Part shown: positions 1-55,401 of the stretch, one piece after another | How the letters are laid out: the number at the start of each line of letters is the position of its first letter | Numbering within the stretch: position 1 is the stretch's first letter | Origin: a virus | Virus record (IMG/VR): IMGVR_UViG_3300049054_000009 | Span: 1 to 55,401 of that record | Length of the DNA stretch: 55,401 nt | Direction: 5' to 3' (one strand) | Translations under genes and position numbers: made by a program | Notes under the pieces: generated by a model | Told to the model about the DNA's origin: nothing | Databases searched by the model: none | The model's input: the letters and a program-made list of their open reading frames with translations, nothing else

Positions 1-127
1 GCATTAACCCTATATACAGTGCCATGTAAACACCAGATATTTTTGCCACCATAATGATACGTCTAGGGTTTACAAAAAACCAGTATGGTGTTTCATCGTT
101 CCATAATGAAATACCGGGTGGGTTACC
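1..127. repeat. Terminal direct overlap: bases 1-127 are identical to 55275-55401 (circular closure; unique length 55274 bp)
   Basis: Direct comparison of the two window ends; an ORF reads in frame across the junction. Confidence 0.95.
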
Positions 128-421
128 AGTAATAGCACCCGGATTAAATTCAAAGCCAGAATTAAGGTAACCAGTATAACCCTGTAATGCCCACCCATAA
201 ATATCAGTGCCTACATTAGCATATTTTCTAATGGCAACATAAATATTTTTATCACCAGAATAGTCTAAGCCTTTAAGATAAATAGTACCATTAGCTGCAA
301 GCTGGTCACTAACTACTATCCAATCACCAGTAGATACTGCAAACGTAATTAACTTATCAAGCAAGTCACTGTAATCTGTAGCATGTGGTGTAGCACCACC
401 ATCTGAAATTTCACTAGCCAT
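1..421 (-). CDS. Tail/virion structural protein, N-terminal part of a gene split by the window boundary (421->1, then 55274->54751; 945 nt, 314 aa)
   Basis: ATG at 421, one nt after the stop of 423..638. Open to base 1. 421+524 nt = 315 codons in one frame. The N-terminus MASEISDGG..DLLDKLITFAVSTGDW resembles the N-terminus of 53754..54743. Confidence 0.8.
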   Translation of the reverse strand, partial: MASEISDGGATPHATDYSDLLDKLITFAVSTGDWIVVSDQLAANGTIYLKGLDYSGDKNIYVAIRKYANVGTDIYGWALQGYTGYLNSGFEFNPGAITGNPPGISLWNDETPYWFFVNPRRIIMVAKISGVYMALYIGLM

Positions 422-422
422 A

Positions 423-638
423 TTATTCTATTATCCTTATGGGTAAGTTTTTATTTTCTAATCTTGATACTATTCTTTCTGCTGCATCATAGGCATCAGA
501 TTTACTAAAGAACGGTTCACCAGATGTAGCTATAATCTTGTTATTAGCAGCTAGCCAGTGCCAGAACCATACTTGCCCGGTCAAAGGTGCAGTTATGGTA
601 TCTTGTTTTAATACTTCTATTCTTTCTATATTATCCAT
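423..638 (-). CDS. DUF1508/YegP-like small protein
   Basis: 71 aa. The motif WFWHWLAANNKIIATSGEPFFSKSDAYDAAERI matches the YegP repeat pattern (xFxLxAxNGxxIAxSexYxsKxxA). Its start overlaps the tape-measure stop by 8 nt. Confidence 0.6.
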   Translation of the reverse strand: MDNIERIEVLKQDTITAPLTGQVWFWHWLAANNKIIATSGEPFFSKSDAYDAAERIVSRLENKNLPIRIIE

Positions 639-3600
639 TTGCTTGTTTTAACCTGCCATTAATAGCTGTAGCATTATCTTCAATCATATTTAAGAAGGTC
701 TTAGTGCCACTACCAGACTGTATATAGTTATCTAATAAGTCATTAGGCAGCACGGTTACCATGTTAATATTCTGACCTGCTGCACCAGCCTGCATAGTAG
801 CTGCTGGTGATACATTACCACCTGCATCTGTATTTCTTGATGGTCTTAAACCGTTATTCATAGCTTCTAAAAAGGCTAGATTTTCTTTTGCATAAGGTGC
901 TTTTACTACAAATTCTTGCCCGTGATAATAGCCCTGTTTTTCATCTGTTCTACCATCACCCGTGTAGCCACCTGTAGCTTTACCACCTGTAGCTTTATCA
1001 CCACCAAATAAGCCAGACAAAAAGCCACCTGCACCACCACTGCCACCACCACCAAATATTTTAAGGGCTAGCTGTGTTATTAAGGCTTTAATAGCAATAT
1101 CAGCAAGAATCTTAATAATAGACCTGCCAAAATCTGCAAATGCTTCTTTAGCATCTTTAGTGCCATCAGCTATAGCACTGAAAAAGTCAGTAAAAGCATT
1201 AGTAAAACTTTCATTAATAGATACAGCAAGGTCATCACCATCAGCACGTAAGCTGGCAATATCAGCACGGGCTTTATCTACATAACCTTGCAAGTCAGCA
1301 TTATTAGTAGCTACTGCAATAGCTTCTAAAACAGCTAGAAGGTCAAAAGCCTTACCATAGTAAGTAGCTATAGCTTCTTCACGCATCTGATATGCCTGCT
1401 GTTCTGTTATAGCATTATTAGTTAGCTGTGTATTAATACTTTGCTGCTGTAATTGTAATTCATTTTGTGCAGCAGATACTTTTTCCTTAAGGTCATCTAC
1501 TTCACGGGTAGTTTGTGATACTGACCAGTCATTTAAGCCTAGTGCTATATCTGTAATATCTTGCTGTAATTTAGGGTCACCAATAGTATCAGCCAGTGTG
1601 GTCATGTCAGCTACTAACACTTTAATTTTAGTAGCCTGTTCTTCTTCAAACTGTTTCAAAGCTGCATTAGCTTGTGTTCTGGCAATAACACCGTTTAATA
1701 CTTGCTGATTTAAAGATTTTTCTTGCTGGTCACGTTCTGTTAATAAGCGGTTAATGTTTTCTTGTGCTGCTTCAAAATCTGCCTGTGCAGCTAAAACAGC
1801 CTTTAGCTTATTAATATTTTCTATGCCAGCAGTATCACCTTTAGCAGTAGCTTTTTCTAGGTCTTTTTCAAAGCGGTCATCAAGTTCACGTCTGGTAGCT
1901 GCTGCACCCTTACCTTCTATCTGTAATAATTCAGTTTGCACATCACGTAACATTTGCAAATATTCTTTTTCTGCATCATTACGCTGCTGTGTAGCTTCAT
2001 TTACTATGTCATACTGCTTTAATAGCAGCTTATTATTTTCAGCACCTATCTTATCAATATCAGCTTGAATCTTTAGCCTTTCAGAACCTTTAGTAGCCTG
2101 TTCTAATCTTTTACGTTCTACAGCAGCCAGTGAATTATTCAATAAAATCTGTATAGAATTTTCACGTAAGTGCAGCACGGTTAGCTGGTCATAATATTCT
2201 TTATAACCTATAACATTATTTTTAAACTGTCTGGTTAATTCTGCCTGTTCACGTTTATTAGCATCTAGCAGTAAGTCATACTTAATAGTGTAAAAGGTCT
2301 TTTCAGTTTCTAATAAGGCATCTTGATAGGCTTTTATCTCAGGGTCAGTTTTTTCTTTCTTAAACTTACCAGAACCACCACCACTAAAACTACCTGTGGG
2401 CTTGATTTTATCCTTTAAAAAGGTATTAGGTGTGCTGCCATCACCACCATTAATTAATTTAAATAGACTGGTAAAGGTAGGTGAAGCTATAATATTTGCA
2501 CTATTAGTTAATTCTTGGTTAAGGTCAGCTATAGCAAATTTAGCATCAGCTACAGCCTTTTCAATAGTCTTTACAGCACCAGCTATATCACCAGATAAAT
2601 ACTGATACAGGGCTTTGCCAGCTTGAATTACACCACTTGATAAGCTGATAGCAGACACCACAAGGGCATAAATAGCATTAATGATGCCATAAATTAGATT
2701 AGTTAAAAATGCAATAGTGCCACCAAAAGCATACATAACACCAAGTGCTATTTTAAAGGTGGTAACTATAACACTGGCTAAGTCTGCTATGCCTTGCTTA
2801 TTTTCTACTACAAATTGTAAAGTGGATTTTGTTAATTCTATCAAGGTAGGTAAAAGACCTGCACCTATCTGATTTTTCAGCCCGGTTACTACTGCTGACA
2901 GTTCACCTAATGTGTCACCAAATTCATCAGCAGCATTAGCAGATTCTGTGCTAATGACTACACCTAATGCTTCTGCACGTTTTCTAAATTCTTCAAAACT
3001 GCCACCAGCTTGATTTATAACAGGTATAAGGTCAGCACCAGACTTGCCTGCTGCCTTCATAGCAGCATTTACCTGTTCTGCACCGGGTGGTATTTTGCTA
3101 ATAGCTTTAAATAACTGTTCAAGGGCATTAACACTATTTTTATTAGCAGCATTAGCATCTATACCTAACTGTTTAAAGGTATGGGCTGCTTCTTTATTAC
3201 CACCAGCAGCTTCATTTACATTTCTAAGATATTTCTGAAAACTACCAGCTACTTTTTCAAGACTACTACCACTACCATCTGCTGCCAGCTTTAACACACT
3301 TAGTTCTTCTGCTGTTAAACCAGTTTCTTCTGCCATGTCATGCAAAATACTACCTGCATCAGAAAAACTTTTACCTATAGCAAAGCCTGCTAAGATTACG
3401 CCACCAGCCACTGCTAACACAGCTAAAATAGCTGCTGCTGCAATTCCTAAAGCACTAGCAAGACCTATAGTAGCTACTGTAGCAGCTTCTTCTACTACTA
3501 CTACTTCTGCTGTTACTACAGTTAATGCCTGTTCTGCTACTGCCAGTTCTGTAGTAGCTATAGTAGCTGCCTGATTCGCTATAGTCAGTTCTGCTGCTGC

Positions 3601-4533
3601 TATAGCTGCTGTACTTTCTAAAGCGGTTAATTCTGCTGCTGTAGCAGTACCACTAGCTTGTGCTGCTGCTAAATTTGCATTAGCAAGGGCTGCTGCTTCA
3701 CTGGCAGTGGTTTGTGTAACAGTGGCAGCAGCAGCAGTAGCCTGTGCAGCAGCATGTGCATCAGTGGCAGCAGTTACTGCTAGTTCCGATGCTACTAATG
3801 CTTCTATGGTAGGTAATAAAGATGCAGTAGATGCACCAAATAATTCAGCTACAGCAGCAGCCCGGTCAGTAGCTTCTGTCATACCTGATAAAGTAGTTAT
3901 AAACTGTTTTAAAGCTACTTCTGGTTCTACTAATGCCTGCTGTGCTGTTATTCCAAACTTTTCAAATAAAGTAGTAGATAAAGCACCTTGCTGGTTTTTT
4001 GCAGCAGTGCCTAATAAACTAGAAAATCTGGTTAAGACCTTTTCAGAACCATTAACAGACTTTGTAAGTGCTTCTGCACCTTTAGCACCTGCATCAAAGA
4101 ATGGTGTAAAATCTAAGCCACTTCTAAAGGCAGTAGCTAAACTTTGCAAGGCTGGCAGAATATCACCGTTTAAGGCTTGTGTAATAGCATTACCAAAACT
4201 GGCAGCAGTTTGTGATAGTTCTGCAAAGCCCTTTTTAGCATCACCCGTGCCAGCAGTAACTTTGCTTAGGGCTGCTGGCACTTTACCAGTAGCCACACCT
4301 GCACCAGTCATAACACGCTGTGTGTCACTACCTAGCCCACGTAATTCATTACCAGCTTTATTTAATTCTTTTACGGTCTGTTCTATGTTCTTTTGAACAG
4401 TAGAAAACTGTGCTGACAGTTCTTTAATACCACTGCCAGCACCGGGTAGCTTTTCAATTTCACGCACTAGCACCCGGACATTATCAAGCCCTTGCACTAT
4501 TGCTTTTATACTAATATCTACATTATCAGTCAT
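631..4533 (-). CDS. Tail tape measure protein
   Basis: 1300 aa, Ala/Thr-rich and coiled-coil with central hydrophobic segments. It lies immediately downstream of the G/GT chaperone pair. Confidence 0.9.
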   Translation of the reverse strand: MTDNVDISIKAIVQGLDNVRVLVREIEKLPGAGSGIKELSAQFSTVQKNIEQTVKELNKAGNELRGLGSDTQRVMTGAGVATGKVPAALSKVTAGTGDAKKGFAELSQTAASFGNAITQALNGDILPALQSLATAFRSGLDFTPFFDAGAKGAEALTKSVNGSEKVLTRFSSLLGTAAKNQQGALSTTLFEKFGITAQQALVEPEVALKQFITTLSGMTEATDRAAAVAELFGASTASLLPTIEALVASELAVTAATDAHAAAQATAAAATVTQTTASEAAALANANLAAAQASGTATAAELTALESTAAIAAAELTIANQAATIATTELAVAEQALTVVTAEVVVVEEAATVATIGLASALGIAAAAILAVLAVAGGVILAGFAIGKSFSDAGSILHDMAEETGLTAEELSVLKLAADGSGSSLEKVAGSFQKYLRNVNEAAGGNKEAAHTFKQLGIDANAANKNSVNALEQLFKAISKIPPGAEQVNAAMKAAGKSGADLIPVINQAGGSFEEFRKRAEALGVVISTESANAADEFGDTLGELSAVVTGLKNQIGAGLLPTLIELTKSTLQFVVENKQGIADLASVIVTTFKIALGVMYAFGGTIAFLTNLIYGIINAIYALVVSAISLSSGVIQAGKALYQYLSGDIAGAVKTIEKAVADAKFAIADLNQELTNSANIIASPTFTSLFKLINGGDGSTPNTFLKDKIKPTGSFSGGGSGKFKKEKTDPEIKAYQDALLETEKTFYTIKYDLLLDANKREQAELTRQFKNNVIGYKEYYDQLTVLHLRENSIQILLNNSLAAVERKRLEQATKGSERLKIQADIDKIGAENNKLLLKQYDIVNEATQQRNDAEKEYLQMLRDVQTELLQIEGKGAAATRRELDDRFEKDLEKATAKGDTAGIENINKLKAVLAAQADFEAAQENINRLLTERDQQEKSLNQQVLNGVIARTQANAALKQFEEEQATKIKVLVADMTTLADTIGDPKLQQDITDIALGLNDWSVSQTTREVDDLKEKVSAAQNELQLQQQSINTQLTNNAITEQQAYQMREEAIATYYGKAFDLLAVLEAIAVATNNADLQGYVDKARADIASLRADGDDLAVSINESFTNAFTDFFSAIADGTKDAKEAFADFGRSIIKILADIAIKALITQLALKIFGGGGSGGAGGFLSGLFGGDKATGGKATGGYTGDGRTDEKQGYYHGQEFVVKAPYAKENLAFLEAMNNGLRPSRNTDAGGNVSPAATMQAGAAGQNINMVTVLPNDLLDNYIQSGSGTKTFLNMIEDNATAINGRLKQANG

Positions 4534-4534
4534 G

Positions 4535-5454: not shown

Positions 5455-5493
5455 GCTGGTTTTTTCCTTTTTATTTCTTAATAAAGTTTTATT

Positions 5494-5538: not shown

Positions 5539-5563
5539 TATGAGTTTTAGCTGTTAGTTTAGA

Positions 5564-9643: not shown

Positions 9644-10666
9644 CTATACGTTCATCACTACCATAGCACTAGGGTAATACAGAACTGCACCACCATTATG
9701 ACCATCATGTATTTCTATTTCACGTGGCACTTGTTCTTCACCCTTATCAATAATTTTCTGATAAGCACCCGGTGCTGAATTAGGGTTATTAGCATTACGT
9801 GTCATTAAGTAGTTGCCAATTTGCCCACCATCTGTTCTGACACCTACCACTAATACCTTGCCATCACCAATGTAAGGCACAAAAGTGCCAGCATCATCTT
9901 TGTAACCTTCGTCATAAATTTCAATCTGTGGTAACCCTTCACCTAGCAGCACACCATTAATTTCAGTCAGATTAAGAACGGTAAGCAGCCCTGATGTTCT
10001 TCTACCAGCCATGTCATTTACGTTAGTATTTGACACTAAGCGGTTAAAGGTTACCCGGTTCATAATAGCACGGGCATTTGCACCAAAACTTACACCTTTA
10101 CCACGTGAAAGTAATTGAATGTCACGAAAGTTTTTAAGTGGCACTGCTGTAGCACTGGTAGCCCATGTAACACCAGCAGTGTAGGTATTCAGCACATAAG
10201 TATCAGTGTGCAAGATAGCACCATTAGCAGCAGATACAGAAAAAGTGCCAGTGGTCAGCAAAAGCCAGCCTAGCTGTTCAATTCTGTCATAACGTCTGGC
10301 TAACAGTCTATCTTGACGTTTTGCTACAAGGTCATTAACATCTATTGCTGCATTAGTTAATTGACCGTAATTTCTTCTTTTGGTAATTTCTTGTTCATCA
10401 ATTACCATGTGTTCACCATACACGCCCGGTTCTGCTACATAGCGTTTTGCGCCTACATGCTGTACTCTAGGTGGTCTGCCATTAAGCCCACGCACCTGCT
10501 GCAAGCCTGTATAGTCATCTTCTTGTTCCCATTCTAACGTGTGGTTATCAAGGGTATCAATAGGTAGAATGGTAAAAATCATTCTACGTGCTTCAAGGTT
10601 TGCTGCCTTGATAGCTGCTACTGTTCTAAGCACCCGGTTAGTAGGGTAGATTAATGCTTGTGCCAT
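9644..10666 (-). CDS. Major capsid protein (lambda gpE-like)
   Basis: 340 aa, in the lambda-type order S49 protease - scaffold - decoration - capsid, with a strong ribosome-binding region. Confidence 0.8.
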   Translation of the reverse strand: MAQALIYPTNRVLRTVAAIKAANLEARRMIFTILPIDTLDNHTLEWEQEDDYTGLQQVRGLNGRPPRVQHVGAKRYVAEPGVYGEHMVIDEQEITKRRNYGQLTNAAIDVNDLVAKRQDRLLARRYDRIEQLGWLLLTTGTFSVSAANGAILHTDTYVLNTYTAGVTWATSATAVPLKNFRDIQLLSRGKGVSFGANARAIMNRVTFNRLVSNTNVNDMAGRRTSGLLTVLNLTEINGVLLGEGLPQIEIYDEGYKDDAGTFVPYIGDGKVLVVGVRTDGGQIGNYLMTRNANNPNSAPGAYQKIIDKGEEQVPREIEIHDGHNGGAVLYYPSAMVVMNV

Positions 10667-10711
10667 ATTTTTTATTTTTCCTTTTATTGAATTTCTTAGC
10701 CTTAGCAGCTA

Positions 10712-13151: not shown

Positions 13152-14882
13152 TTATTTATCACCTTTGATGGTGGGTGGCTTGCCACCCTTCCCTTTTGCT
13201 TTATCTGGTTCTGTGTCACCTTCTTCTTGACCATCACCAGTGCCTTCACCATCATCTTGTAAATCTTTCTTTTGGCTTTCTTGTGCAAGCTGTTTTGCTA
13301 TACGTTTAAAAGCCCGTTCTGCTTCTGTAGGTAGTGGTATGCCTATTTGTGTGAAAAGATGGTTAAGCTGGCTTTCTGTGCAAATATCAGCCAGTGCTTT
13401 AACTGCCTGTGCATCTTGTGACCAGTCACGTGCTTCTGTATCACCTAGTGAAGTTTTAGGTAGCAGTTCATCAGCATCTTCATCACCAAAATTATATCTA
13501 ACCAGTGGCTTAAAAATATCATAACGCACCATATCAGCTATGGTATCACGCACCCACCATACTATCTGGTCTATCACCCTTGCCTGTGAACCAGTAGCAC
13601 CCTTAGTTTGGTGTGTACTATCACGGGTGGCAAGTTGCTGAAATAAAATAGCCATTGTAATTTCACTGCCAAATTTATCTAAAGCCCGTGTAAATACTTC
13701 ACCTTCACTATTAGCTTCAAGTAAGGTAAAGTCAGTACCTTCTGGTGCTACACCTACCTGATGATTACGCATCTTGCCTAACATATTAAGCAAAAATTGG
13801 TGGGCTTGAATAGTGATAGGTTCACCATTTTCATCTTTCTTAGTAGTTACACCATCATCTTCATATAAAGTTACTTCATCTTGACCTGCTGCCACTGTAG
13901 CAATAATACCCGGTATGGCTGATACCATTAAGAATAGTAAATATTCTGGAAAGGTACGCCTTTTCATATCCCATCCGTTAAGTGCAGCATTTAAAGCACT
14001 TTGCCCACGTGGGTCATTATTTTTAGGTCTGTAGGTGAATACTGCAAACTTTTCACGTGGTATAACTTCTGACATATCAGCCACCATAGTGGTTTGCACT
14101 ACACTGGCTTGACCGGGCAAAGCACCTAGCATACCTAATTCATTCATGTAAGCATCTACTACAAATGCAATAGCTTCACGTGGCTTAGGTTTAAGTGCCT
14201 TTAAGCACCACTTGCCAGTATCAGTACCACGTGCTGCAATTTCTAGCACCTGTTCTGCTACCTTGTTACCATGTGCCATACCTTCAAAACATAATTGAAA
14301 TAGGGTGGCAGCTATCTTAGGTACACGGTCATACTGCCTTTGGCAAAAGTCTGCTATTTCTTTAGCACGTTCTACACGTGGGTCAGTAGCTGCTGGCATA
14401 GGTGCAGTGTCATCTGCATCATCAGGTGCATCTAAGGCAGGTATATTATCTTTTTGGTTATTTTTGGTAGTGTCTGGCAGGTTTGTCTTAGGTGTGGGAT
14501 TTTCTAAAGGGTCACCCGTGTCAGCAGCTTCATCTTTTTTATTTATCTGTAAGGCACTTTCAGTAACTGCTGGTGTTATCATCATATCTTCATTCATAGC
14601 CATCAAAGCTATAAGCATAAGACCTGCAAATACATCAGGGTCAGCTAACATTTCTTCTATGATGACATGGCTGATGTTACCTAGCCCGGTGCGTAAGCTG
14701 GTATCATCATACTGACCTAACACACGTGGCATAGCAGCACCATAAGGGCTGCCAGATACATATTCTGCACCGGGCTTAATCTTAGTGTTAGGCTTGATAG
14801 GTATTACATTATTAGATGGTGTCATATAAAAGAAAAGCTGCACCTGTGCTATTTTCGCCAAAAGCACTGATGCAGCTTGCAT
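13152..14882 (-). CDS. Portal protein
   Basis: 576 aa, between TerL and the protease. The start is uncertain; an alternative ATG is at 14825 (MTPSNN..). Confidence 0.75.
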   Translation of the reverse strand: MQAASVLLAKIAQVQLFFYMTPSNNVIPIKPNTKIKPGAEYVSGSPYGAAMPRVLGQYDDTSLRTGLGNISHVIIEEMLADPDVFAGLMLIALMAMNEDMMITPAVTESALQINKKDEAADTGDPLENPTPKTNLPDTTKNNQKDNIPALDAPDDADDTAPMPAATDPRVERAKEIADFCQRQYDRVPKIAATLFQLCFEGMAHGNKVAEQVLEIAARGTDTGKWCLKALKPKPREAIAFVVDAYMNELGMLGALPGQASVVQTTMVADMSEVIPREKFAVFTYRPKNNDPRGQSALNAALNGWDMKRRTFPEYLLFLMVSAIPGIIATVAAGQDEVTLYEDDGVTTKKDENGEPITIQAHQFLLNMLGKMRNHQVGVAPEGTDFTLLEANSEGEVFTRALDKFGSEITMAILFQQLATRDSTHQTKGATGSQARVIDQIVWWVRDTIADMVRYDIFKPLVRYNFGDEDADELLPKTSLGDTEARDWSQDAQAVKALADICTESQLNHLFTQIGIPLPTEAERAFKRIAKQLAQESQKKDLQDDGEGTGDGQEEGDTEPDKAKGKGGKPPTIKGDK

Positions 14883-14984: not shown

Positions 14985-15191
14985 TCAAGTAATAATAGTG
15001 CCAGATGTTGTATTTTTTTGTTTTTGTTCTGTATTTTCCCTAAAATAATAAGTTCTAATCCTTTTGCAAATGCACTTAAATATAATGCCATCAATATTTT
15101 CAGTAGGCATGACCGTGCCTTTATAAGTCACACTGCTAGCATTATGGCTTGCCAGATAAGCACCACACTTTTTACAATAAATCTTTATCAT
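14985..15191 (-). CDS. Small zinc-ribbon-like protein
   Basis: 68 aa with CKKCG...CICK; ATGA overlap with the TerL stop. Confidence 0.5.
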   Translation of the reverse strand: MIKIYCKKCGAYLASHNASSVTYKGTVMPTENIDGIIFKCICKRIRTYYFRENTEQKQKNTTSGTIIT

Positions 15192-18141: not shown

Positions 18142-18354
18142 GCACGTGGGAAAATAAACCATAAATATAAGGCTACATGACCAGACACATACATTTATAC
18201 ATAATTCATGTATTTCTATACTTTTTATTTCAAAAGTGTATAATGCTGTAAACCCTGCATCTACACCACTTACCTACATATTCACCACATAATATATACA
18301 CATTACACTTTTTCTGGCTATTTTCATTACTATTTTATCCTTACGCGCATGCGT
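18142..18354. repeat. Non-coding module A, homologous to 35065..35295
   Basis: Blocks shared with module B: gcacgtgggaaaata, ccagacacata, aaggctac, tttctatactttttattt[c/g]aaaagtgtata (1 mismatch), ctacacataat, cgcgcatgcg. Confidence 0.85.
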
Positions 18355-29176: not shown

Positions 29177-29209
29177 ATATTTAAGGGTGGTGTTTAACAC
29201 CAGAAGGTA

Positions 29210-35064: not shown

Positions 35065-35295
35065 GCACGTGGGAAAATATACAGAATATACATATTTTCA
35101 CCTTGCCAGACACATAGTAAAATAAGGCTACTACACATAATGTGTATATTTCTATACTTTTTATTTGAAAAGTGTATATCTACCTTATCTATCATGTTTA
35201 TCTATAGTTATCTATGCTTGTGCATGCTTATCTATACTTAATTACACATTTATTTCAGATTTTCAAAAACAAAAAATATTTTCCGCGCATGCGCG
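35065..35295. repeat. Non-coding module B, homologous to 18142..18354
   Basis: Carries the same sequence blocks as module A; ends in the 12-bp palindrome CGCGCATGCGCG (35284-35295). Confidence 0.85.
35185..35235. repeat. Four direct TTATCTAT repeats (iteron-like; candidate replication origin)
   Basis: Copies at 35185, 35198, 35208 and 35228 in an AT-rich spacer between the primase-polymerase and helicase genes. Confidence 0.5.
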
Positions 35296-40969: not shown

Positions 40970-42085
40970 TCATTTATGTTTTTCACAAAAACTTTCACCA
41001 TCTTCTGCTTTATTGTAGCAGTTATCTGCTTCACAATATAATAAATCTTCACAGGTGGCACAATAACTACCATCTTCTTCTGCTTCATTTTCACAATTTA
41101 AGTTTTCACAGTAGGTGGTATAATCAGTGGTGTCATCTGCATCTTCATCACTAGCTGGTGCTTTATAATCAGGGTAATTTTCATCTAAGAAAATTCTAAT
41201 ATCATCATACTTGTCATGTATCTGGTGCAGTTTGGCTATATCGTAATTTTCTTGTGCTACAGCAGCCTGCCATAGTTTATCATCACGGTAAGAAAGCACT
41301 GTATCAGTTACAAGCTGGTTTAAGGTCTGTGGGTCAAGTGCATCTAATTCCCATGACATGTCACCATATTTAGCCTGATATTCTTTGAATCTACTATCTA
41401 GCACTTTGGCATAATTTGGTGGTGGGTTATATCTTTCAATTTGTGGCATATTAAGTGCCATACGCTTAACTTCTACACCACCCATGAATAAAGATAAACG
41501 GTCAAAAATATCACGGGTCATATCTAAGCCACTAGGGTCATGGTCACCATGATGTAAAATTAAGGGTGTTTGACCGTTCTTTTTGTAACTAAGCAGCCTG
41601 TTAGCTGCCACATACATTTCAGAAACACTGGTGTAGCCCTTACAAGCAAAGAAGTCTATGCCTAGCTGATTACATGACCGGGCAAATACACCTTCTAGTG
41701 CTTCTTTTTCTATCCACACTTCAATTTTGTATTTTTGCTTAAATCTAGGGTCAGACCATTTATCAAGATGGTAGCCATAAGGCACTAAACTAAGTCTATC
41801 TTTAGGGCTTTCATAAGTAGCCAGCCCTTTCAAATTTCTACCCCTATCTACTAGGTGTGACCAGTCAATATAGCCAGCTAACCGGGCATCATTCATTAAG
41901 CTGCCTAAGTTATCATAGCTTTCTTTTTTATTTTCAATTTCATCAGCACTGACTAGCTGATAGTAAAGCTGCCTTAAAGTCATATCATAGCCTTGCTGGT
42001 GATACCTTTGTAAAATCTTTTCACATTTGTCAATTAAGACTAGGCTGGCATGCCTAAAGTTTTTCTGTATATACGCTTTTTTCAT
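40970..42085 (-). CDS. Stand-alone Spo11/Topoisomerase VI-A-like protein (5Y-CAP winged helix plus Toprim) with an acidic Cys-rich tail
   Basis: TLRQLYYQLVS (catalytic-Tyr motif), EVWIEKEA (Toprim Glu), HHGDHDPSGLDM (Toprim DxD). The C-terminal 60 aa carry ~10 Cys. Confidence 0.7.
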   Translation of the reverse strand: MKKAYIQKNFRHASLVLIDKCEKILQRYHQQGYDMTLRQLYYQLVSADEIENKKESYDNLGSLMNDARLAGYIDWSHLVDRGRNLKGLATYESPKDRLSLVPYGYHLDKWSDPRFKQKYKIEVWIEKEALEGVFARSCNQLGIDFFACKGYTSVSEMYVAANRLLSYKKNGQTPLILHHGDHDPSGLDMTRDIFDRLSLFMGGVEVKRMALNMPQIERYNPPPNYAKVLDSRFKEYQAKYGDMSWELDALDPQTLNQLVTDTVLSYRDDKLWQAAVAQENYDIAKLHQIHDKYDDIRIFLDENYPDYKAPASDEDADDTTDYTTYCENLNCENEAEEDGSYCATCEDLLYCEADNCYNKAEDGESFCEKHK

Positions 42086-47994: not shown

Positions 47995-50900
47995 TTATAA
48001 ACCACTCATTACTATTTCACCATCATCTGACCATACAAATTCTGGTGGTGCGCCACCATCATCACCTGTGGTTACTGGTTCTGATGTACCAGCACCAGCA
48101 GTAATAAGGATAGTGCCAGCAGCATCATTATAAGTAATGGTAATATTTGTGCCAGCTACTAAAGTAGATGCCATAGTATCTTGCACTACTTCTGTATCTA
48201 AAGACAGATTAAGAACATTACCAGCATCATTATAACTGGCATTAATACCAGAACCAGCAGCCACTAAAGCACCTACTATATCTTGTATAGCTTCTGCATC
48301 TACAGATAAGGTAAAACTATTACCAGCATCATTATAACTAGCATTTAAGCCCGTGCCATTAACCACAAAGGTGGCTAACATGTCTTGCATAAATTCTGTC
48401 AAATTAGTAGTGTTAGTTTCTACAGTTAAGGTGTTACCAGCATCATTATAGGTCAAGGTAATATAAGTGCCTTGAACTAAAAATGTAGCTAGCATGTCTT
48501 GTATAGCTTCATTACTTATACTGGCTGCTGGCTGCCATTCAATTAAGCCAGTAGTAGGATTATATAACGGTGCATTATTAGTGCCAGTAGGTGTGCCAGT
48601 TACTGGCACACTACTTATGCTAGTAGCATTACCTGCTGGTGGTGCTACATAAGTGCCACTACCTGCATAAGCAGGTGCATGAATAGTTACACCACTTCTA
48701 GCACTGCCATGTGTAAGTGCTGCATAACTGGTAACACCATCACGGGTGCTGTATAATTGAAAAGTTAAGGCATTAGCTAAACTACCACCATTATCTATAG
48801 TTTCTTGTGCATTAGTATAAATATAACTTTCAGTAACTAAGTCTGATACCGTTCTAAGAAGTGTGCCAGCCTGATTAAATATTTTTAAGGTATATTTAGC
48901 ACCACCTTCTAAGCCCACAGATGCAGTATTTTGTAATATTACCGTGCCTTGTCTAACCCTATCACGGTGTGACCATGCTACTGTAATATCACCACTACCG
49001 GGTATGCTGCCATTATAAACTGTGTTAATTCTAAGATTACCCGGTGCGTAAGGTCTTACACTTCTGTAACCCATAGCCTTAGAAATCATAGCAGCACCAG
49101 CTTCATCTAACACGCCTTGCAGTGTTCTGGTTAAGATTTTTGCATAGCCTGTAGCACCTGCTACATAGTTTGCTTCACTTCTGGCATCACCATAAGAAAA
49201 GAACCATGCACGGGCTGCTGTGGTAAAAGTCTGTGGTGTAGTATCAAGCAAACCACGCCACACATTATTAAGCTGATAGTTACCACTGACCAGTGTGAAA
49301 GATTCAAAAGCCATAATTTCTACTTTTGAACCTTCAATAACTAGAAACAAGTTTTTGCCATTTGCTATTTCAGTGGCTGTAGCAGCACCTAGCTTATCTA
49401 AATTAGATGCACCTGTAGCATTAATTACCAGCACACCAGTATTATCTTTAGCAGCAGTAAGATAGGTATAAGCTGCATTTAATAGCCCTGTAGGTGTGTA
49501 GTTATTATTTGGGTCATCTACATCATAAGTAACATTATCAAGACTGGTCAACATATCAAAGCTAAAGCTACCACTGTTAGGTGCTAAAGCCATTAACCAT
49601 AATCTAGCTGTTTCATCACCAGCTAGCATATAAGGCAATTCATCAAGTAAGGTAGTGGCAGTAGCTACAGGTGCTACAGAAGGGCTAGTGCCACTGGTGG
49701 TAGGTGGTGAAGCTACTATAGCAGACTGGCTGTTAAATAAATCTTCTATAGCTTCTATTTCTATTACAGGGTTAGTAGGGTTACCTATCCTAAGCCCGGT
49801 GCAGCGCATCACCATATTTACTATGGCATTACCATTATGGTCTTTTATTCTTTTAGTAGAAAATTTAAACGTGCTACCAATGGCAGTTTTATAACCTTTA
49901 TTACTTATCTGAAAAGTGACCTTAGCCAGTGGTGTAGTCATAGCTTTTAGGTCACGCTGTGCTACATTAGCAGCAGTGGTAGGGTTACTGATACCTACAT
50001 GCTGCACATTAGCAGCTACTGTAGCACCTTGTATTCTTTGATTAGCTACATCAAAAGCTATGGCAGTATCTTGAATAAAATCATTTAACCTGTTTACAAA
50101 AGGTATAGTCAAATAGTTAGTAGTTTCAGCCCATGCACCACGTGTATAAGAAGATATGCTAAGTATTTCTTTATCAGTATAGCTAGGTATATCTGCTACT
50201 ACATAATCAGCACGGGCTGCCTTGATAACTATTTTACCAGTTTGCAGGTCTGAATAGATTACGCTATCAGTAAGCTGTAAGATATTATTGATAATATCTC
50301 TACATGGTTTGCTAGTATCCCATAAACCAGAAAAACCTAAGCCATCAGTATGAAATTTCTGTGCAGCAGATAAGAAGCTAGCAGTATCTACATACTGTGC
50401 TGGCATGCCTATAGCATATTCAGCACTTCTGAAAATATCATACAAAACTTCAGCAGGGTTAGCATCACCAGTATTAATATTAGAATAATTAGTGCCACTG
50501 TATGGCAGATTATTAGGTATTGATTTTGCTACAAATTGCCATGCAGCTATGTTTTCACTGTTACCTAGATAACCAGAACCTTTTGCCCGTGTTTGCCCTT
50601 TAAAGATTACGTAAAAAATACCCCTATGTGCTGTGTAATTACCATATTGTGTGACTAGGTAAGAATCTTTAGTGGCATTAGGTAAGCCCATGTGAACACC
50701 TAAATACCCATAGATACCACCATTACCACCACTGGCAGGGTCATTACCACCAAATAAGGTAGGCTTATCTATTAATATTTCACTGTCAGTGGTTACACTG
50801 CCAGACCATGCCACCATATCACCTATAATAATTTTTTGCAGTTCATCTACCCGGTAAGCCAGTGCCATTTCTACACCACAGAAATACTTGTAGCCTGTGG

Positions 50901-51171
50901 TCTGTTTTTTAGCCATACCAAAAGAAAGGATTTTTTGCAGGGTGCTGACCTTCTGTATAATAGCTTCACTGCTAAAGTCAGTAAGACTAACTACATTAGG
51001 TGCTTTCATTAAAGCAGTGCCATACAGTTTTGGCACACTTCTAGTAGATTCTGCTGTAGGTGCATCAAGGTCAGCTAAGGTAGCTGGCTTAGGCTGGCTT
51101 GTCTTAGGTCTAAATAACTGACCTAAGATAGTAGAAGCAGCAAACATTAATAATGCAAACCAGAATGGCAT
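47995..51171 (-). CDS. Host-specificity / central tail fiber protein (gpJ-like, Phage-tail_3-type N-terminus)
   Basis: 1058 aa. N-terminus PFWFALLMFAAS..LGQLFRP...VPKLYGT is typical of J-like tip proteins. The C-terminus holds tandem repeats. Confidence 0.7.
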   Translation of the reverse strand: MPFWFALLMFAASTILGQLFRPKTSQPKPATLADLDAPTAESTRSVPKLYGTALMKAPNVVSLTDFSSEAIIQKVSTLQKILSFGMAKKQTTGYKYFCGVEMALAYRVDELQKIIIGDMVAWSGSVTTDSEILIDKPTLFGGNDPASGGNGGIYGYLGVHMGLPNATKDSYLVTQYGNYTAHRGIFYVIFKGQTRAKGSGYLGNSENIAAWQFVAKSIPNNLPYSGTNYSNINTGDANPAEVLYDIFRSAEYAIGMPAQYVDTASFLSAAQKFHTDGLGFSGLWDTSKPCRDIINNILQLTDSVIYSDLQTGKIVIKAARADYVVADIPSYTDKEILSISSYTRGAWAETTNYLTIPFVNRLNDFIQDTAIAFDVANQRIQGATVAANVQHVGISNPTTAANVAQRDLKAMTTPLAKVTFQISNKGYKTAIGSTFKFSTKRIKDHNGNAIVNMVMRCTGLRIGNPTNPVIEIEAIEDLFNSQSAIVASPPTTSGTSPSVAPVATATTLLDELPYMLAGDETARLWLMALAPNSGSFSFDMLTSLDNVTYDVDDPNNNYTPTGLLNAAYTYLTAAKDNTGVLVINATGASNLDKLGAATATEIANGKNLFLVIEGSKVEIMAFESFTLVSGNYQLNNVWRGLLDTTPQTFTTAARAWFFSYGDARSEANYVAGATGYAKILTRTLQGVLDEAGAAMISKAMGYRSVRPYAPGNLRINTVYNGSIPGSGDITVAWSHRDRVRQGTVILQNTASVGLEGGAKYTLKIFNQAGTLLRTVSDLVTESYIYTNAQETIDNGGSLANALTFQLYSTRDGVTSYAALTHGSARSGVTIHAPAYAGSGTYVAPPAGNATSISSVPVTGTPTGTNNAPLYNPTTGLIEWQPAASISNEAIQDMLATFLVQGTYITLTYNDAGNTLTVETNTTNLTEFMQDMLATFVVNGTGLNASYNDAGNSFTLSVDAEAIQDIVGALVAAGSGINASYNDAGNVLNLSLDTEVVQDTMASTLVAGTNITITYNDAAGTILITAGAGTSEPVTTGDDGGAPPEFVWSDDGEIVMSGL
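48090..48515 (-). repeat. Four tandem ~34-aa (about 100-bp) coding repeats at the fiber C-terminus
   Basis: E(A/F/V)xQDxxAxxxVxGTxIxxxYNDAGNxLxL appears four times: ITLTYNDAGNTLTV, LNASYNDAGNSFTL, INASYNDAGNVLNL, ITITYNDAAGTILI. Confidence 0.8.
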
Positions 51172-51175
51172 AAAT

Positions 51176-52018
51176 TTAACCTACATTTTTAACACCCGTT
51201 TGAAAAGGGTTTTTCTTTGGTATTCTATCAAAGCAGCCACATGCACCACCAGTATCTGTGTATGCACCAAACTTACCAGCACAGGTAGAAAACAAATGGT
51301 CACAGCCAGCATAAGCCCGTAAAATTTCACCAGCTACTACATCAGTAGGGAAAGGTGAAAGCAGGGTAAGCACACCTGCTACATTTGCTGTAATTAATCG
51401 TATGTCAGTAACACCAGAATCTAGCACCCTTTCTACAAAGCCAGACTTAAACCACTGGTCTGGCTGTGCAGCCCATTCTGGTGCAGTTAAAGTAAAGCCA
51501 GAAGGTGGTGAAGATAAAGTGCCATCTATCCGAAAAGCAGAAGCTGGCACGGGGCAAAAGCCATCATAAAGAATATGCCCACACAAAGCACTAAAGGTTC
51601 TTCTAAGCCCTAAGCGGTCAAAAAGCACCGTGATAGGTGAACAGTTCAAATAGCTATTCTTATCATCAAACTTACAGCTTTGCACAAAGCCCTGCCAGTA
51701 AACATAAACATCAGCAGGGTCACCCCTGTGAAATTTGAAAACTACTAAAAAAATCTGCTGTGCTGGCACAAAAGCTACATATTGACGTGGTAAAATCCAT
51801 TCTTTACTGGCTTTGATGGTAATACGCTGTGCATTAATTTCTTGACTTTGACCAGTGCCAGAAGGTTCTAAGCCTTCAAGCGGTATATAATCTTCATCTA
51901 AATAAGTATGTATCTGGTCATCAGACGTATAAGTATAAGCCACCGTGCCAGCAGTGAATTTAAATAAAAATATGGGCTTGCCAGCCCGGTTAGATTTTTC
52001 AAAAATGTCAAAACTCAT
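51176..52018 (-). CDS. Tail tip protein, DUF2163 / BR0599-like
   Basis: 280 aa. N-terminus PIFLFKFTAG..YTYTSDD and C-terminus CDHLFSTCAGKFGAYTDTGGACGCFDRIPKKNPF follow the BR0599 pattern. Confidence 0.6.
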   Translation of the reverse strand: MSFDIFEKSNRAGKPIFLFKFTAGTVAYTYTSDDQIHTYLDEDYIPLEGLEPSGTGQSQEINAQRITIKASKEWILPRQYVAFVPAQQIFLVVFKFHRGDPADVYVYWQGFVQSCKFDDKNSYLNCSPITVLFDRLGLRRTFSALCGHILYDGFCPVPASAFRIDGTLSSPPSGFTLTAPEWAAQPDQWFKSGFVERVLDSGVTDIRLITANVAGVLTLLSPFPTDVVAGEILRAYAGCDHLFSTCAGKFGAYTDTGGACGCFDRIPKKNPFQTGVKNVG

Positions 52019-52020
52019 AA

Positions 52021-53754
52021 TTAAATAGTATCATCATACACATCAGTTATCAGTAAATCAGATGCAGCCACATTACCACTATGCCACTGTATTTCTACTG
52101 CATCTGCCTTAAGTGCAGAAGGTATTAAAAAGCATACCCGGTCTATCTGGCTTATTAAAATATCAGCACCTAGTGCAGTATCTATACCTATAGTTTCAGT
52201 GCCATCTTCATTAATGCCAGCACCCGTGATACGTCTAAAATATCTAGTGCCATTCTTTAGCTGTATCATAATATCACGTCTATTATAAGCAGGTGCATCA
52301 TCTATATAATAAAGGCTGGCATAGCCTATAGCGTTAATTAAGATATTAGTAGTAGCACTGGCAATATCTTGCACCACCTGCATATCTTTTGACCATGTAG
52401 GCTGCCAGAATGGTGCTAGCCTGCCTTTTCTATTATCAAGCCAGCCATAGTATTTTGCTATCTGTGAATGACCATTAAAGATTAAGCCAAAAGTATTAGA
52501 AGCATCTGGTGCAGGCTGGTCAGCTTCTATGTTGAATATACCTACATTTGCATCATTTCTGATTACCTGCTGTTCTAAGGTAAAACTTTGCGTGTTATCG
52601 TAATTACTTTTAGTAAGCAGCACAGGTAATGACCTATAAGTAGTTTCTGCTGCATACACTAAACGGTTTATGCTAAGGTATTGTGGCAGTAATTCAAAAC
52701 TGACTGGCACGGTATCTATATCTACTGTATGTTTTTGCCCTTGTAAATTTGGATTTACATAAGCTAATCTAGCTGGCATAACTACAGTTTTACCAGCTTG
52801 CCATTCTTTTACTAGGTTTACCTTTAAAGTTAGATAAGTGCTAAACACTTCATCTATTTCTACCAGTTCATAATTTTCTTCATTCTGCCACAGCATTACA
52901 TAGTTATCAGCATCATAGTCAAAGTAGGTAGTATTTACCTGCACTTCATTTTGACCAGAAGCAGCAGTAACTGCTAACCGGGTAGCATCTGACCAGATAG
53001 GTATAGCAAAAATTCTGGTTTGCCAGCCAGCTATAAGGGCTGCAAATAATGCCCTAAGTCTGGCTGCATTACTATTTGTGCTGGCAAGTAAGAACTGATA
53101 ACTTAAAGACCTTCTAGGTGCATTACGTAGCATTACTAGCTGTTCAATACCATCAAGACTTTTACCACTGCTGGTATTATACCATGCCAGCCTTTCATTT
53201 ATTCTTTCAGACCAGTTATGCTGAAATGGCATAACTAATACCCGTTTACCACTGACATATAAAAAATATTCTATGATTACATCATCAAAGGTTAAGGTAA
53301 AAAAACCATCAAACTGTGGGCTGCCTACAGTATTAATAACAAGATTCTTATAAGTGCTTTCTAGTGCTGCTATGACCAGTGGTGTAGTTACATCAAAAGT
53401 AACACCAAGTAAGTCAGTAGCTACTACATCTTCTAAGGTCACTGGTATAAAGTAACCGTTCCAAATTTCTATAGGTCTGACTTGCTGGCTAACTAAATTA
53501 CCTACATCAATACGGTTAGGTATGATATGCACCCGGTTATACCATAAATCGGCAAAGTCACCCATTAACAGACCATCAAAAGTATCCACAGATGGTGTAG
53601 GGAAAATGTCAGTTTTAACGCCACCAGTTTCAAGATATTCACCTAGAAAGCATTTATCTGTAGGGTATTCAGCCACATCTATAGTGTCTAAGGCACTATC
53701 AGTAAGTAACCCTAGTATGTTATTATCTAGCAGAATACCATTATATGATGCCAT
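52021..53754 (-). CDS. Distal tail / baseplate-hub-like protein
   Basis: 577-aa ORF upstream of the BR0599-like and J-like genes; positional call. Confidence 0.45.
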   Translation of the reverse strand: MASYNGILLDNNILGLLTDSALDTIDVAEYPTDKCFLGEYLETGGVKTDIFPTPSVDTFDGLLMGDFADLWYNRVHIIPNRIDVGNLVSQQVRPIEIWNGYFIPVTLEDVVATDLLGVTFDVTTPLVIAALESTYKNLVINTVGSPQFDGFFTLTFDDVIIEYFLYVSGKRVLVMPFQHNWSERINERLAWYNTSSGKSLDGIEQLVMLRNAPRRSLSYQFLLASTNSNAARLRALFAALIAGWQTRIFAIPIWSDATRLAVTAASGQNEVQVNTTYFDYDADNYVMLWQNEENYELVEIDEVFSTYLTLKVNLVKEWQAGKTVVMPARLAYVNPNLQGQKHTVDIDTVPVSFELLPQYLSINRLVYAAETTYRSLPVLLTKSNYDNTQSFTLEQQVIRNDANVGIFNIEADQPAPDASNTFGLIFNGHSQIAKYYGWLDNRKGRLAPFWQPTWSKDMQVVQDIASATTNILINAIGYASLYYIDDAPAYNRRDIMIQLKNGTRYFRRITGAGINEDGTETIGIDTALGADILISQIDRVCFLIPSALKADAVEIQWHSGNVAASDLLITDVYDDTI

Positions 53755-54743
53755 TAGTTTTCTTTAATTGCTACACCCCACCAGAAGGTAGGTGAATTAG
53801 CTACATTAGTCTTGGTCTTAAAAGGAAATACTCTAAAAGTATCACCACTGCCATCATCCATCTGCTGTGCTGGTGTAAGATTACGAATATTACAAAAATA
53901 AATATCTGGCAGCTTACCTACTACAGAAAAGTTTGTGTTATTATCTCTATTACCAGTGCCATCACGTGTTATACATATTTCAACTGGTGATAGAACAGGC
54001 TGCTGATTAAATAAGTTAGACATATTAGCTACACTATTACAAAGCATGCTAATAGTTTCAAAGAATTTAGGCATAATAGGCACTACAGTTTCATTAGAAG
54101 CTGGTAACCAGCCAGTATTACCATCAATACTACTGCCATACATATAAGCATTAGGATTTAAGCCCATATTTGTAGTTTGTGTAGTATTACTGTAGCCTGC
54201 TATAGCACTTAATGATGCTGGTACATTACCACTATAAGCACTATTAGCTGCTGCATAAAAAGCACCACCAGACCATGTGCATGTTTTAGTAACCCTGCCA
54301 AACATTAACCACTGATACTGACCTGTGGCATATTCAATAAAAACATAAATCATGTCACCACGTGCAAAGAAATAATAGGCAGGCATAGCACCACTAATGC
54401 CTATCATGCCTACCATTCTTGGCAGGTCGCCACTACCACCACCAGCTATATAAGGTTTACCGGGCTGCATAAGCCAGCTATTAGCACCGTTATAGCTTGT
54501 GCTACCTACCACTAACAGTGAATTGCTGCCTGCTACTATATTAGACGTGCCATTATTAATATTTTCGGCTACTGATGCCCTAAAATTCATAAATACATCA
54601 GAATCTAATTGTAAATGCACACGCCTACCACTGCCTTCTACAGCGTTAAAATTACTTGTCCATCCGTTTGTTACACAGAAAGATGCTAACGCATCTAGTA
54701 AATTTGGCACTGTGGTTATAGCACCTGTTTCAAATATAGCCAT
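53754..54743 (-). CDS. Tail-associated structural protein, distantly similar to the junction-spanning gene
   Basis: 329 aa. N-terminus MAIFETGAITTVPNLLDALASFCVTNGW parallels ..DYSDLLDKLITFAVSTGDW. Confidence 0.5.
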   Translation of the reverse strand: MAIFETGAITTVPNLLDALASFCVTNGWTSNFNAVEGSGRRVHLQLDSDVFMNFRASVAENINNGTSNIVAGSNSLLVVGSTSYNGANSWLMQPGKPYIAGGGSGDLPRMVGMIGISGAMPAYYFFARGDMIYVFIEYATGQYQWLMFGRVTKTCTWSGGAFYAAANSAYSGNVPASLSAIAGYSNTTQTTNMGLNPNAYMYGSSIDGNTGWLPASNETVVPIMPKFFETISMLCNSVANMSNLFNQQPVLSPVEICITRDGTGNRDNNTNFSVVGKLPDIYFCNIRNLTPAQQMDDGSGDTFRVFPFKTKTNVANSPTFWWGVAIKEN

Positions 54744-54750
54744 AATATTT

Positions 54751-55401
54751 TTATTCGTCTTTTATCGCAAAGAAGTTATATAAATCAGTTCTAAAAGTAT
54801 CTTGAAAAACTATGTAAGTGTCAGCACCTATATCTATGGTATCTTCTGTGCTTAGATTATAACCAGCTACAAAAAAAGCACCATCAAGAATACCTAGTGC
54901 ATCTGGTGTATCACCACGTAATAAACGCAAAGGCTTAACTGCATAATTACCATCAAAATCTGGTCTAAGGTTACGCCACCCTGCATTAACACCTTGTGCA
55001 TTATTAATAAATTTATCACAGTAAGGTGATACACCACGAATAGCAGCTACAGAACCACCCGGTATAGCGTATAGCTGATTTACGCTATAAATTTCTATCC
55101 ATATACCTGTAGATGTACGAACAAGTAAATTACCATTAGTAGATGGTATAAAAGGCACTGCCATACTGTTAGTAGTATCAGAATATCTATTCACAGCACC
55201 TGCTACACTTGTGCAAATAGTGCTGCCACCTATCACTAAAGGATATGCCCACTGACCTGCTGTACCATAAGGTAGCATTAACCCTATATACAGTGCCATG
55301 TAAACACCAGATATTTTTGCCACCATAATGATACGTCTAGGGTTTACAAAAAACCAGTATGGTGTTTCATCGTTCCATAATGAAATACCGGGTGGGTTAC
55401 C
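54751..55401 (-). CDS. C-terminal part of the junction-spanning structural gene (continuation of 1..421; bases 55275-55401 duplicate 1-127)
   Basis: The frame is open to the window end. The Met at 55326 in the ORF track is internal (..RRIIMVAKISG..). Confidence 0.8.
   Translation of the reverse strand, partial: GNPPGISLWNDETPYWFFVNPRRIIMVAKISGVYMALYIGLMLPYGTAGQWAYPLVIGGSTICTSVAGAVNRYSDTTNSMAVPFIPSTNGNLLVRTSTGIWIEIYSVNQLYAIPGGSVAAIRGVSPYCDKFINNAQGVNAGWRNLRPDFDGNYAVKPLRLLRGDTPDALGILDGAFFVAGYNLSTEDTIDIGADTYIVFQDTFRTDLYNFFAIKDE
55275..55401. repeat. Terminal direct overlap, second copy of 1..127
   Basis: Identical 127 bases. Confidence 0.95.

Follow-up and report, generated by a model that had tools for sequence, protein, structure and literature searches.

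Several dozen short DNA words are missing from an uncultured phage genome, probably through cumulative escape from many host restriction systems

The IMG/VR record IMGVR_UViG_3300049054_000009 (positions 1 to 55,401; G+C = 39.5%) is essentially the complete genome of an uncultured siphovirus-like tailed phage. Its whole length of 55,401 bp was analysed and is called the window here. About 40 or more independent short words of 3 to 7 bp are depleted from this genome, over its full length and on both strands. The best explanation for this, which we hold to be probable, is selection, built up over many host restriction systems, against the sites that they recognise. An earlier note, made from the sequence alone, had proposed escape from multiple restriction systems on the basis of a few palindromes that seemed to be absent. 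This proposal is well supported, since the depletion is word-specific and strand-symmetric, extends to intergenic DNA, goes beyond codon usage and varies word by word among close relatives.

All observed numbers are exact counts, and expectations were taken from base composition and from a maximal-order Markov model. GATC was absent (194 copies expected from composition and 106 from the Markov model), as were GGCC (82 and 128), CCWGG (50 and 76), ATGCAT (18 and 25), GGWCC (50 from composition) and RCCGGY (20 from composition). The Poisson probability of finding no GATC alone is ~1e-46. The note had listed GATC, GGCC, GGWCC, CCWGG and ATGCAT as missing and had guessed at roughly 50-200 expected copies of the 4- and 5-mers. 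Both statements hold, with composition giving 50-194 for the first four words. The words that it had called common are indeed common: CTAG (204), AGCT (451), TGCA (458), CATG (244), ACGT (143) and GCATGC (26), with AGCT, TGCA, CATG and CTAG at or above expectation.

In the palindrome and word census the missing words were not near their expected frequencies, and the depletion proved to be larger than had been noticed by eye, where GAG/CTC, the gapped words and most hexamer palindromes had been missed. On the plus strand GAG occurs 4 times and CTC 16 times (474 and 873 expected), so that about 98% of the pair is lost (20 against ~1,350). Among the gapped words CCNNGG, GGNCC and GGNNCC are all absent (80 expected each), as is GCTNAGC (35 expected), and 47 of the 64 hexamer palindromes do not occur. 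TCGA (1), CGCG (6) and GCGC (9) are nearly absent. Strong losses were also seen for GTAC (24 against 201 expected), CAAC/GTTG (21 against 184), GCCG/CGGC (18 against 125) and CCCAG/CTGGG (0 against 64), while CCCC/GGGG, GGATG and GGAAG are further primary depletions. Another 25 hexamers, including CAGCTG, CTGCAG, AAGCTT, GTGCAC, CCCGGG, ACCGGT, GTATAC, GGCACC, CTGAAG, GAATGC and GAAGAC, are each found once or never (12-52 expected). CGA/TCG is left with 48 copies and GGA/TCC with 194. Of the 2080 strand-symmetric hexamers, 41.75 kb of the sequence contain only 1449, compared to ~2010 in first-order Markov simulations. Further members of the set and some of its residual sites are located as follows.

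1 to 55401, both strands: GGYRCC, GTATAC, GCTNAGC, GGATG, CTGAAG, GAATGC, GAAGAC, GCGC and CGCG, further members of the depleted set (exact counts against Markov expectations)
20669 to 20672: the sole TCGA of the genome
13152 to 16813, minus strand: 8 of the 24 residual GTAC sites, within the portal and terminase genes

We found no islands of residual banned words of the kind that recently acquired genes would leave; residual sites are evenly spread over the genome. Small intergenic clusters of the otherwise rare words CGCG and GCGC were seen at 35284-35295 and 18344-18348, and these may be regulatory or structural sites that were kept despite the ban.

Reverse complements are depleted alike though all genes share one strand. 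In the 3.4 kb of intergenic DNA, GAG and CTC together occur 3 times (84 expected) and GATC not at all (12 expected), and the depletion holds in all reading frames. When synonymous codons were shuffled with proteins and codon usage fixed, the number of banned words rose from 377 to ~3,750. Because a shuffle that preserves usage raises the banned words tenfold, codon pairs are tuned and not codon usage alone. Neither strand nor frame nor coding status matters to the depletion, a sign that double-stranded DNA is what is recognised.

These results bear on an origin without any reader of double-stranded DNA, that is, through mutational bias, base composition, codon adaptation or the avoidance of mRNA signals (ribosome-binding-like sequences, RNase sites). 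The CG dinucleotide is scarce (0.26) and CA/TG are overabundant, a picture that on the surface recalls decay by methylation and deamination, and GGA and GAG belong to the Shine-Dalgarno core. However, reverse complements would not be lost equally when one strand is transcribed, and neither the equal depletion of intergenic DNA, nor the exclusion of amino-acid pairs, nor the tenfold effect of the usage-preserving shuffle fits such an origin. Moreover, single 4-mers flip between zero and above expectation among relatives of ~70% terminase identity. A mutational process would need dozens of unrelated palindromic targets and is already inconsistent with the data; we regard this whole group of explanations as very improbable. 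Shine-Dalgarno avoidance, mRNA-interferase avoidance and footprints of TC-context deaminases were considered separately and ruled out, as the loss affects both strands and DTCW contexts occur at about the expected rate.

The relatives provide a natural experiment on the selection of words. Independent NCBI, JGI and Logan assemblies yielded contigs of 45-56 kb that carry terminase homologues with 94, 71, 68, 57 and 52% identity. The source samples are JGI 3300049207, 3300049069 and 3300065457, SRR35219863, SRR26324620, GCA_034680565.1 and GCA_040384225.1, and clade members are represented by contigs of 54-56 kb. In the following, L001 is the closest relative fetched, L006 the most distant one, and L005 a contig of SRR31724236 (13.9 kb). 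All relatives avoid GGWCC, CCWGG, CCCAG/CTGGG, CAGCTG, CTGCAG, AAGCTT and CYCGRG. GATC, GAG/CTC, GGNCC and CCGG outside CCSGG are avoided by all of them except L006. Other words are switched on and off. GGCC is absent from the window, L001 and L003, and present in 58-116 copies in L002, L005 and L006. The avoidance of GTAC is incomplete in the window (24 copies), complete in L001 (0) and absent in L002 (131), with one copy in L003. GCGC is missing from L001 and L002 and occurs 92-109 times in L003 and L005. GGYRCC and CAAC/GTTG are free in L005, and this relative alone avoids AGCT (5 against 54 expected), CTAG (2 against 54) and TTAA (12 against 54), all of which are abundant in the window. 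The words that switch between relatives are GGCC, GTAC, GCGC, ATGCAT, GTGCAC, GGYRCC, CAAC and AGCT. Word-by-word switching at ~70% terminase identity is a prediction of changing restriction repertoires and not of mutation bias, and the switching words could be used to date and rank restriction pressures. In IMG/VR there were no close relatives and no contig with the GAG/CTC taboo.

Missing words could also be an artefact: modified motifs might be misread consistently in sequencing or assembly, so that CCWGG, for instance, appears as CCSGG, or the sequence might be synthetic or recoded. Zero CCWGG together with enriched CCSGG is the pattern of a W-to-S miscall, and the nucleotide-metabolism genes of this phage could mean that its bases are modified. 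Against this, the terminase region is reproduced at 99.4-100% nucleotide identity in assemblies of three other samples (JGI 3300049207, JGI 3300049069 and Logan SRR35219863) with the same absences. The diverged relatives from NCBI, JGI and Logan assemblies follow the same rules with different word lists, and the open reading frames (ORFs) are long, unbroken and strongly matched to protein families. In addition, the one non-synonymous CCSGG site of the terminase could be compared with homologues.

15752 to 15760, minus strand: CCCGG in frame +2 of the large terminase gene, GAC CCG GCA, Asp-Pro-Ala

Pro stands in this column in 51 of 60 distant terminase homologues (~50% identity). As the encoded Pro is conserved, the S in the centre is genuine, not a W that was called wrongly. 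The artefact reading is already largely refuted, and we give it next to no weight.

A second claim of the note was that CCGG occurs only as CCCGG or CCGGG. All 114 copies of CCGG indeed lie inside CCSGG, and none was found outside it. The positions that had been quoted pointed to the right sites but were off by 0-10 bases, the true CCGG starts being 114, 139, 577, 2882, 3083, 3862, 4442, 15754 and 38682. Two codon examples given for the rule are both correct on the minus (coding) strand.

3082 to 3090, minus strand: Pro-Pro-Gly in the tape-measure gene, CCA CCC GGT, an example of a forced CCSGG (Pro before Gly changes from CCW to CCS)
10424 to 10432, minus strand: Glu-Pro-Gly in the major capsid gene, GAA CCG GGC

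Pro is normally encoded by CCA (286) or CCT (279) and less often by CCC (61) or CCG (42), whereas all 42 Pro-Gly pairs use CCC or CCG, as had been described. This codon-level explanation covers the 42 in-frame sites (frame 0, all Pro-Gly; ~37% of the 114), but 26 sites lie in frame +1, 37 in frame +2 and 9 between genes, and there the rule follows from other bans. CCNGG must be CCSGG because CCWGG is banned. Only ACCGGG/CCCGGT is then left, because RCCGGY, TCC/GGA, GCCG/CGGC and CCCGGG are banned: on the 5′ side of CCGG a G makes GCCG and a T makes TCC, on the 3′ side an A makes GGA and a C makes CGGC, and CCCGGG is itself excluded. ACCGGG/CCCGGT accounts for 108 of the 114 CCGG sites (~10 expected from composition) and is by far the commonest CG-containing hexamer, while ACCGGT does not occur (25 expected). 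A simulation in which synonymous swaps were allowed only if they created no new banned words gave 66-80 CCSGG, nearly all of them in ACCGGG/CCCGGT, compared to ~28 after an unconstrained synonymous shuffle. The restriction of CCGG to CCSGG is mostly a by-product of the other bans.

The remaining gap between this null and the 114 observed sites may reflect weak positive selection or the ban list of the simulation, which was incomplete and left CG unconstrained. A functional motif, for example a binding or modification site (ACCSGGT, ACCGGGC/GCCCGGT), would account for the excess over the null as well as for the tenfold enrichment of ACCGGG/CCCGGT, which is also seen in L001-L003 and L005. Thr-Gly and Arg codons likewise take ACC GGG or CGG despite alternatives. 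But even the incomplete ban list recovers about two thirds of the excess, nearly all in the ACCGGG context, and the 42 Pro-Gly sites are forced. Furthermore, the sites have no strand bias (61 against 47) and are distributed across all frames and genes without positional pattern. We therefore consider positive selection for such a motif to be unlikely. The CCSGG excess of Nostoc phage A1 was rejected as a parallel, as it is due to a different repeated word, CCCCGGA/TCCGGGG, with 63 copies (1-50000).

GAG/CTC is lost in every flanking context, with NGAG and GAGN all near zero, and GA is allowed in WGAH only. This taboo is confined to one tight clade, consisting of the window, L001-L003 and L005, and was not seen in L006, reference cyanophages, reference-genome loci or the IMG/VR relatives. 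On the coding strand 135 GGA are left; ribosome-binding zones hold ~23 of them, another 55 are imposed by Trp-x or Met/Trp-Asp/Glu pairs, and Phe-Pro accounts for many of the TCC that persist. AAGGAAA serves as the ribosome-binding motif, ~8-10 nt before the ATG of most genes (for example at 10667-10690 on the minus strand, upstream of the capsid gene); with GAG banned, the canonical GGAGG is impossible.

It is possible, though we hold it only tentatively, that the GAG/CTC, CGA/TCG and GGA/TCC taboos do not stem from classical restriction enzymes. They could come from an undescribed short-motif nuclease or nickase, from near-complete purging of the protospacer-adjacent motif (PAM) of a type I CRISPR system, or from a self-sparing phage nuclease that degrades host DNA. 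The loss of the whole 3-mer in every flanking context, on both strands and in intergenic DNA, and its limitation to one tight clade are in line with this. A PAM-type target would also save the host from methylating a 3-bp word everywhere, and the phage encodes an HNH nuclease (29693-30004). However, direct evidence was found for none of these agents. The PAM depletion published for phages is said to be weak, as reportedly in the work of Kupczok and Bollback in 2014. Such depletion resembles the present case in that a 2- to 3-nt word is lost on both strands, but the effects are weak compared to the ~98% loss in the window, which would be hard to reach as losing any single PAM brings little benefit. 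Alternatively, the taboo could be the union of many longer type IIS, IIG or III sites that contain GAG, though this union would need to be large. The 3-mer taboo also co-occurs with avoidance of GATC and DCCGGH, which fits a host lineage that has gained more restriction-like systems. The GAG/CTC loss, together with the strong loss of SGA/TCS, may report an undescribed host defence that reads a 3-bp or degenerate <=4-bp word on double-stranded DNA, with a short-motif nuclease and near-total PAM purging as candidates, a reading that we also put forward with reserve. The trinucleotide taboo is a concrete lead to a new specificity.

The bans reach into the proteins. Gly-Pro is excluded because GGNCC is unavoidable in it, and Trp-Pro because GGCC is unavoidable. 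Accordingly, Gly-Pro does not occur in the window (44.7 expected), L001-L003 or L005, and is found 11 times in L006, which tolerates GGSCC. Trp-Pro is also missing from the window (8.5 expected) and was seen only in relatives that tolerate GGCC (6 in L002 and 8 in L005). Met or Trp followed by Asp or Glu, which forces GGA, is depleted 2- to 4-fold: Met-Asp occurs 8 times (25 expected) and Met-Glu 6 times (24 expected), while both are near expectation in all seven of seven reference phages. Gly-Pro is normal in the control phages Pam3 (78 against 75 expected) and Ma-LMM01 (36 against 40). The terminase was uninformative on how Gly-Pro is replaced, as the pair is rare in that family anyway. Host defence thus shapes the protein sequence beyond codon choice, and some dipeptides (Gly-Pro, Trp-Pro) become unreachable. 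In the published Nostocales phages Anabaena A-4L, Nostoc A1 and Nodularia 2AV2 we observed zero Gly-Pro as well (31-42 expected), because GGNCC is absent from them; a statement of this was not found in the papers searched.

From the word statistics, the strand symmetry, the codon and dipeptide consequences and the on/off pattern among lineages, all of which are shown, we infer that restriction endonucleases are the selecting agents, and likewise which host carries them. Each site in incoming unmethylated phage DNA would lower the survival of an infection, and any mutation that removes a site would be favoured. Summed over the many restriction systems of a host population, this would strip several dozen words of 3 to 7 bp from the genome. 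Removal has taken place mainly through synonymous codon and codon-pair choice, with an amino-acid change where no synonymous escape exists. Banned words persist mainly where function or protein sequence forces them, as in the ribosome-binding site AAGGAAA, at Trp-x junctions and in Phe-Pro.

Several points weigh against this explanation. The avoided words are paired with prototype enzymes, which from REBASE we take to be MboI, HaeIII, Sau96I, EcoRII, Cfr10I, PstI, PvuII, HindIII and others, and with none from the phage's own host. We know of no Type II specificity for GAG/CTC, SGA/TCS, CAAC/GTTG or CCCAG/CTGGG, nor of any restriction enzyme that recognises 3 bp in bacteria, where it would to our knowledge be unprecedented. 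As more than 40 specificities likely exceed any single strain, the host would have to be a population whose members share a large pool of systems. About one third of the ORFs are without annotation, and a methyltransferase or inhibitor could hide there. Finally, the CCSGG count exceeds its constrained null.

Avoidance of restriction sites in virulent double-stranded DNA phages was reportedly described by Sharp in 1986. It is an established mechanism in which the benefit of site loss is multiplicative (Rusinov 2018, PMC6286503; Pleska and Guet 2017, PMC5746541; both as cited in a review). Such cases resemble the window in having short palindromes below Markov expectation, but usually concern one to few words at synonymous sites, whereas the window has lost ~40 or more words, including a trinucleotide pair, and excludes dipeptides. 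The taboo-free sequence space of PMC7560954 is alike in that evolution is confined to strings without lethal substrings; that work is theoretical, while the window shows such a case in nature, where the set of taboos is very large and some dipeptides are unreachable. The phage represents a known strategy at an extreme that is unmatched by the reference phages examined; its trinucleotide component is unexplained, and the protein sequence is clearly affected. With nearly one third of all hexamers and three quarters of the hexamer palindromes gone from a viable phage, it marks a limit. If the GAG/CTC loss does report an undescribed host defence, the list of missing words reads out directly more than 40 defence specificities that an uncultured filamentous host carries. 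As a host fingerprint this list could be compared with methylomes or with restriction genes in metagenome-assembled genomes of these samples, and it could serve as a design rule for DNA that is to enter restriction-rich filamentous bacteria.

Bancroft and Smith are said to have described, in 1988-89, the counter-selection of host restriction sites in the Anabaena/Nostoc cyanophages A-4L, A-1 and N-1. We recounted A-4L on its GenBank genome and found, as in the window, no GATC, GGCC, GGNCC, ATGCAT, CYCGRG, CAGCTG, CTGCAG, GTGCAC, GGYRCC or GCTNAGC. Most of these absences are common to Nostoc A1 and Nodularia 2AV2, and zero Gly-Pro is shared by all three with the window. All three are known phages whose hosts are rich in restriction systems. 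However, none of the three avoids GAG/CTC, CCWGG, CCNNGG, CAAC/GTTG or AAGCTT, as the window does. A-4L, the most depleted reference tested, lacks 33 of the 64 hexamer palindromes in 41.75 kb, compared to 47 in the window, and uses 1926 of the 2080 hexamers, compared to 1449. The Anabaena, Nostoc and Nodularia phages have no detectable protein similarity to the window. Several of them carry methyltransferases, whereas none was found in the window, where ~45 of the 69 ORFs were scanned.

The note had further suggested an Anabaena/Nostoc host, with which the data are consistent. The window clade carries a core signature of zero or near-zero GGWCC/GGNCC, ATGCAT, CYCGRG, CAGCTG, CTGCAG, GTGCAC, GGYRCC and GCTNAGC. 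The same signature, as summed observed over expected counts, is found in phages of filamentous cyanobacteria (A-4L 0/141, Nostoc A1 0/103, Nodularia 2AV2 3/132 and Planktothrix PaV-LD 6/146) and is lacking in Microcystis and Pseudanabaena phages (Ma-LMM01, Pam3). Under-representation of RCCGGY is typical of cyanobacteria with the DmtD methyltransferase (PMC4390886), and the absence of this word here, together with the core signature, supports the cyanobacterial hint. On the other hand, the signature is also present in terminase-related genome loci of Anaerolineae/Caldilineaceae (L023 20/162, L070 12/121) and is for this reason not diagnostic of a Nostocales host. A scan of reference genomes with the single terminase protein gave no match. 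In a profile scan (34-54% identity) the best 80 terminase relatives were from Chloroflexota or Planctomycetota and none was cyanobacterial; these relatives are without extreme avoidance. Among isolates, the terminase reaches at best 25% identity to T4-like cyanophage terminases, and the nearest capsid is that of a Microcystis-associated phage (32% identity). Pfam, PHROGs and Rfam revealed no cyanobacterial auxiliary genes (nblA, psbA and similar) or RNAs, which is weak evidence; tRNA genes were not found and Rfam gave no matches. Homologues of the GGDEF protein and of the lysin were from phages or metagenomes only, without host-informative names. The palindrome profiles correlate only modestly with those of reference phages (r = 0.1-0.4), and no paper naming the accessions of the samples or assemblies was found. 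Taken together, a filamentous cyanobacterium is the foremost candidate host, at somewhat short of an even chance; filamentous Chloroflexota are a possible but doubtful alternative, and some other host is slightly less likely still. Strong avoidance of GGWCC, CYCGRG, CAGCTG, CTGCAG and GTGCAC, and in most cases also of GGYRCC, all words that phages of filamentous cyanobacteria avoid too, was observed in prophage-like or phage loci related by terminase, namely the Anaerolineae/Caldilineaceae loci L023, L070, L017, L049 and L014 and L166, L104 and L113 of IMG/VR.

The 69 ORFs cover 94% of the window and are all on the minus strand, and GC skew and AT skew are steadily negative on the plus strand without a switch point. 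The genome is roughly complete and circularly permuted, because the tail genes wrap round the ends of the window. Proteins of the window were found on JGI/IMG metagenome contigs, the longest of which is 55,710 bp, whereas 25 kb of the window, searched by megablast, had no match and hence no close relative among 50,697 phage records. The following genes were assigned, from PHROGs and Pfam unless stated otherwise.

631 to 4533, minus strand: tape-measure protein
9644 to 10666, minus strand: major capsid protein
13152 to 14882, minus strand: portal
15188 to 16813, minus strand: large terminase
21280 to 21963, minus strand: MazG-like protein, MazG/PRA-PH pyrophosphatase, near the ThyX-like/kinase pair
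24800 to 25972, minus strand: protein with a T7 gp1.7-like nucleotide-kinase/DUF3310 domain, adjoining the ThyX-like protein
25966 to 26982, minus strand: divergent ThyX-like protein (Pfam Thy1, E = 3e-7)
28640 to 29200, minus strand: stand-alone GGDEF (diguanylate-cyclase-like) protein of 186 amino acids
29693 to 30004, minus strand: HNH nuclease
40970 to 42085, minus strand: protein annotated by homology as DNA topoisomerase or DNA-binding protein
47995 to 55326, minus strand: tail module
no coordinates, minus strand: helicases and primase-polymerase

Among the ORFs scanned, ~45 of the 69, neither Pfam nor PHROGs recognised a DNA methyltransferase or a known anti-restriction gene. The ThyX-like, kinase-domain and MazG/PRA-PH proteins might together make a non-canonical nucleotide, and the nucleotide-metabolism genes at 24800-26982 could conceivably belong to a second, chemical layer of anti-restriction. 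Of a pathway to hypermodified thymidine (M6/ViI/Pam3-type), only the divergent ThyX-like protein, the gp1.7-like kinase domain and the MazG-like protein were seen, and no transferase was recognised. A PDB sequence search gave no match for the ThyX-like protein or two neighbouring proteins without annotation.

The tail module matches those of YuA/M6/PaMx74-like and Xylella Salvo-like siphoviruses, with 26-30% identity for the tail protein of 1058 amino acids. The annotated topoisomerase has 43-48% identity. Genome size is similar (~55-60 kb), but the head module differs, and these siphoviruses are not known for such a degree of word avoidance. The GGDEF protein is kept across the whole clade and also occurs on phage-sized contigs of ~42 kb, its nearest homologues being from phages or metagenomes and not cellular. 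The protein at 40970-42085 has 43-48% identity to proteins of Pseudanabaena phage Pam3 and of Curtobacterium, Rhizobium, Pseudomonas and Roseobacter phages, and is a widely shared gene of the replication module.

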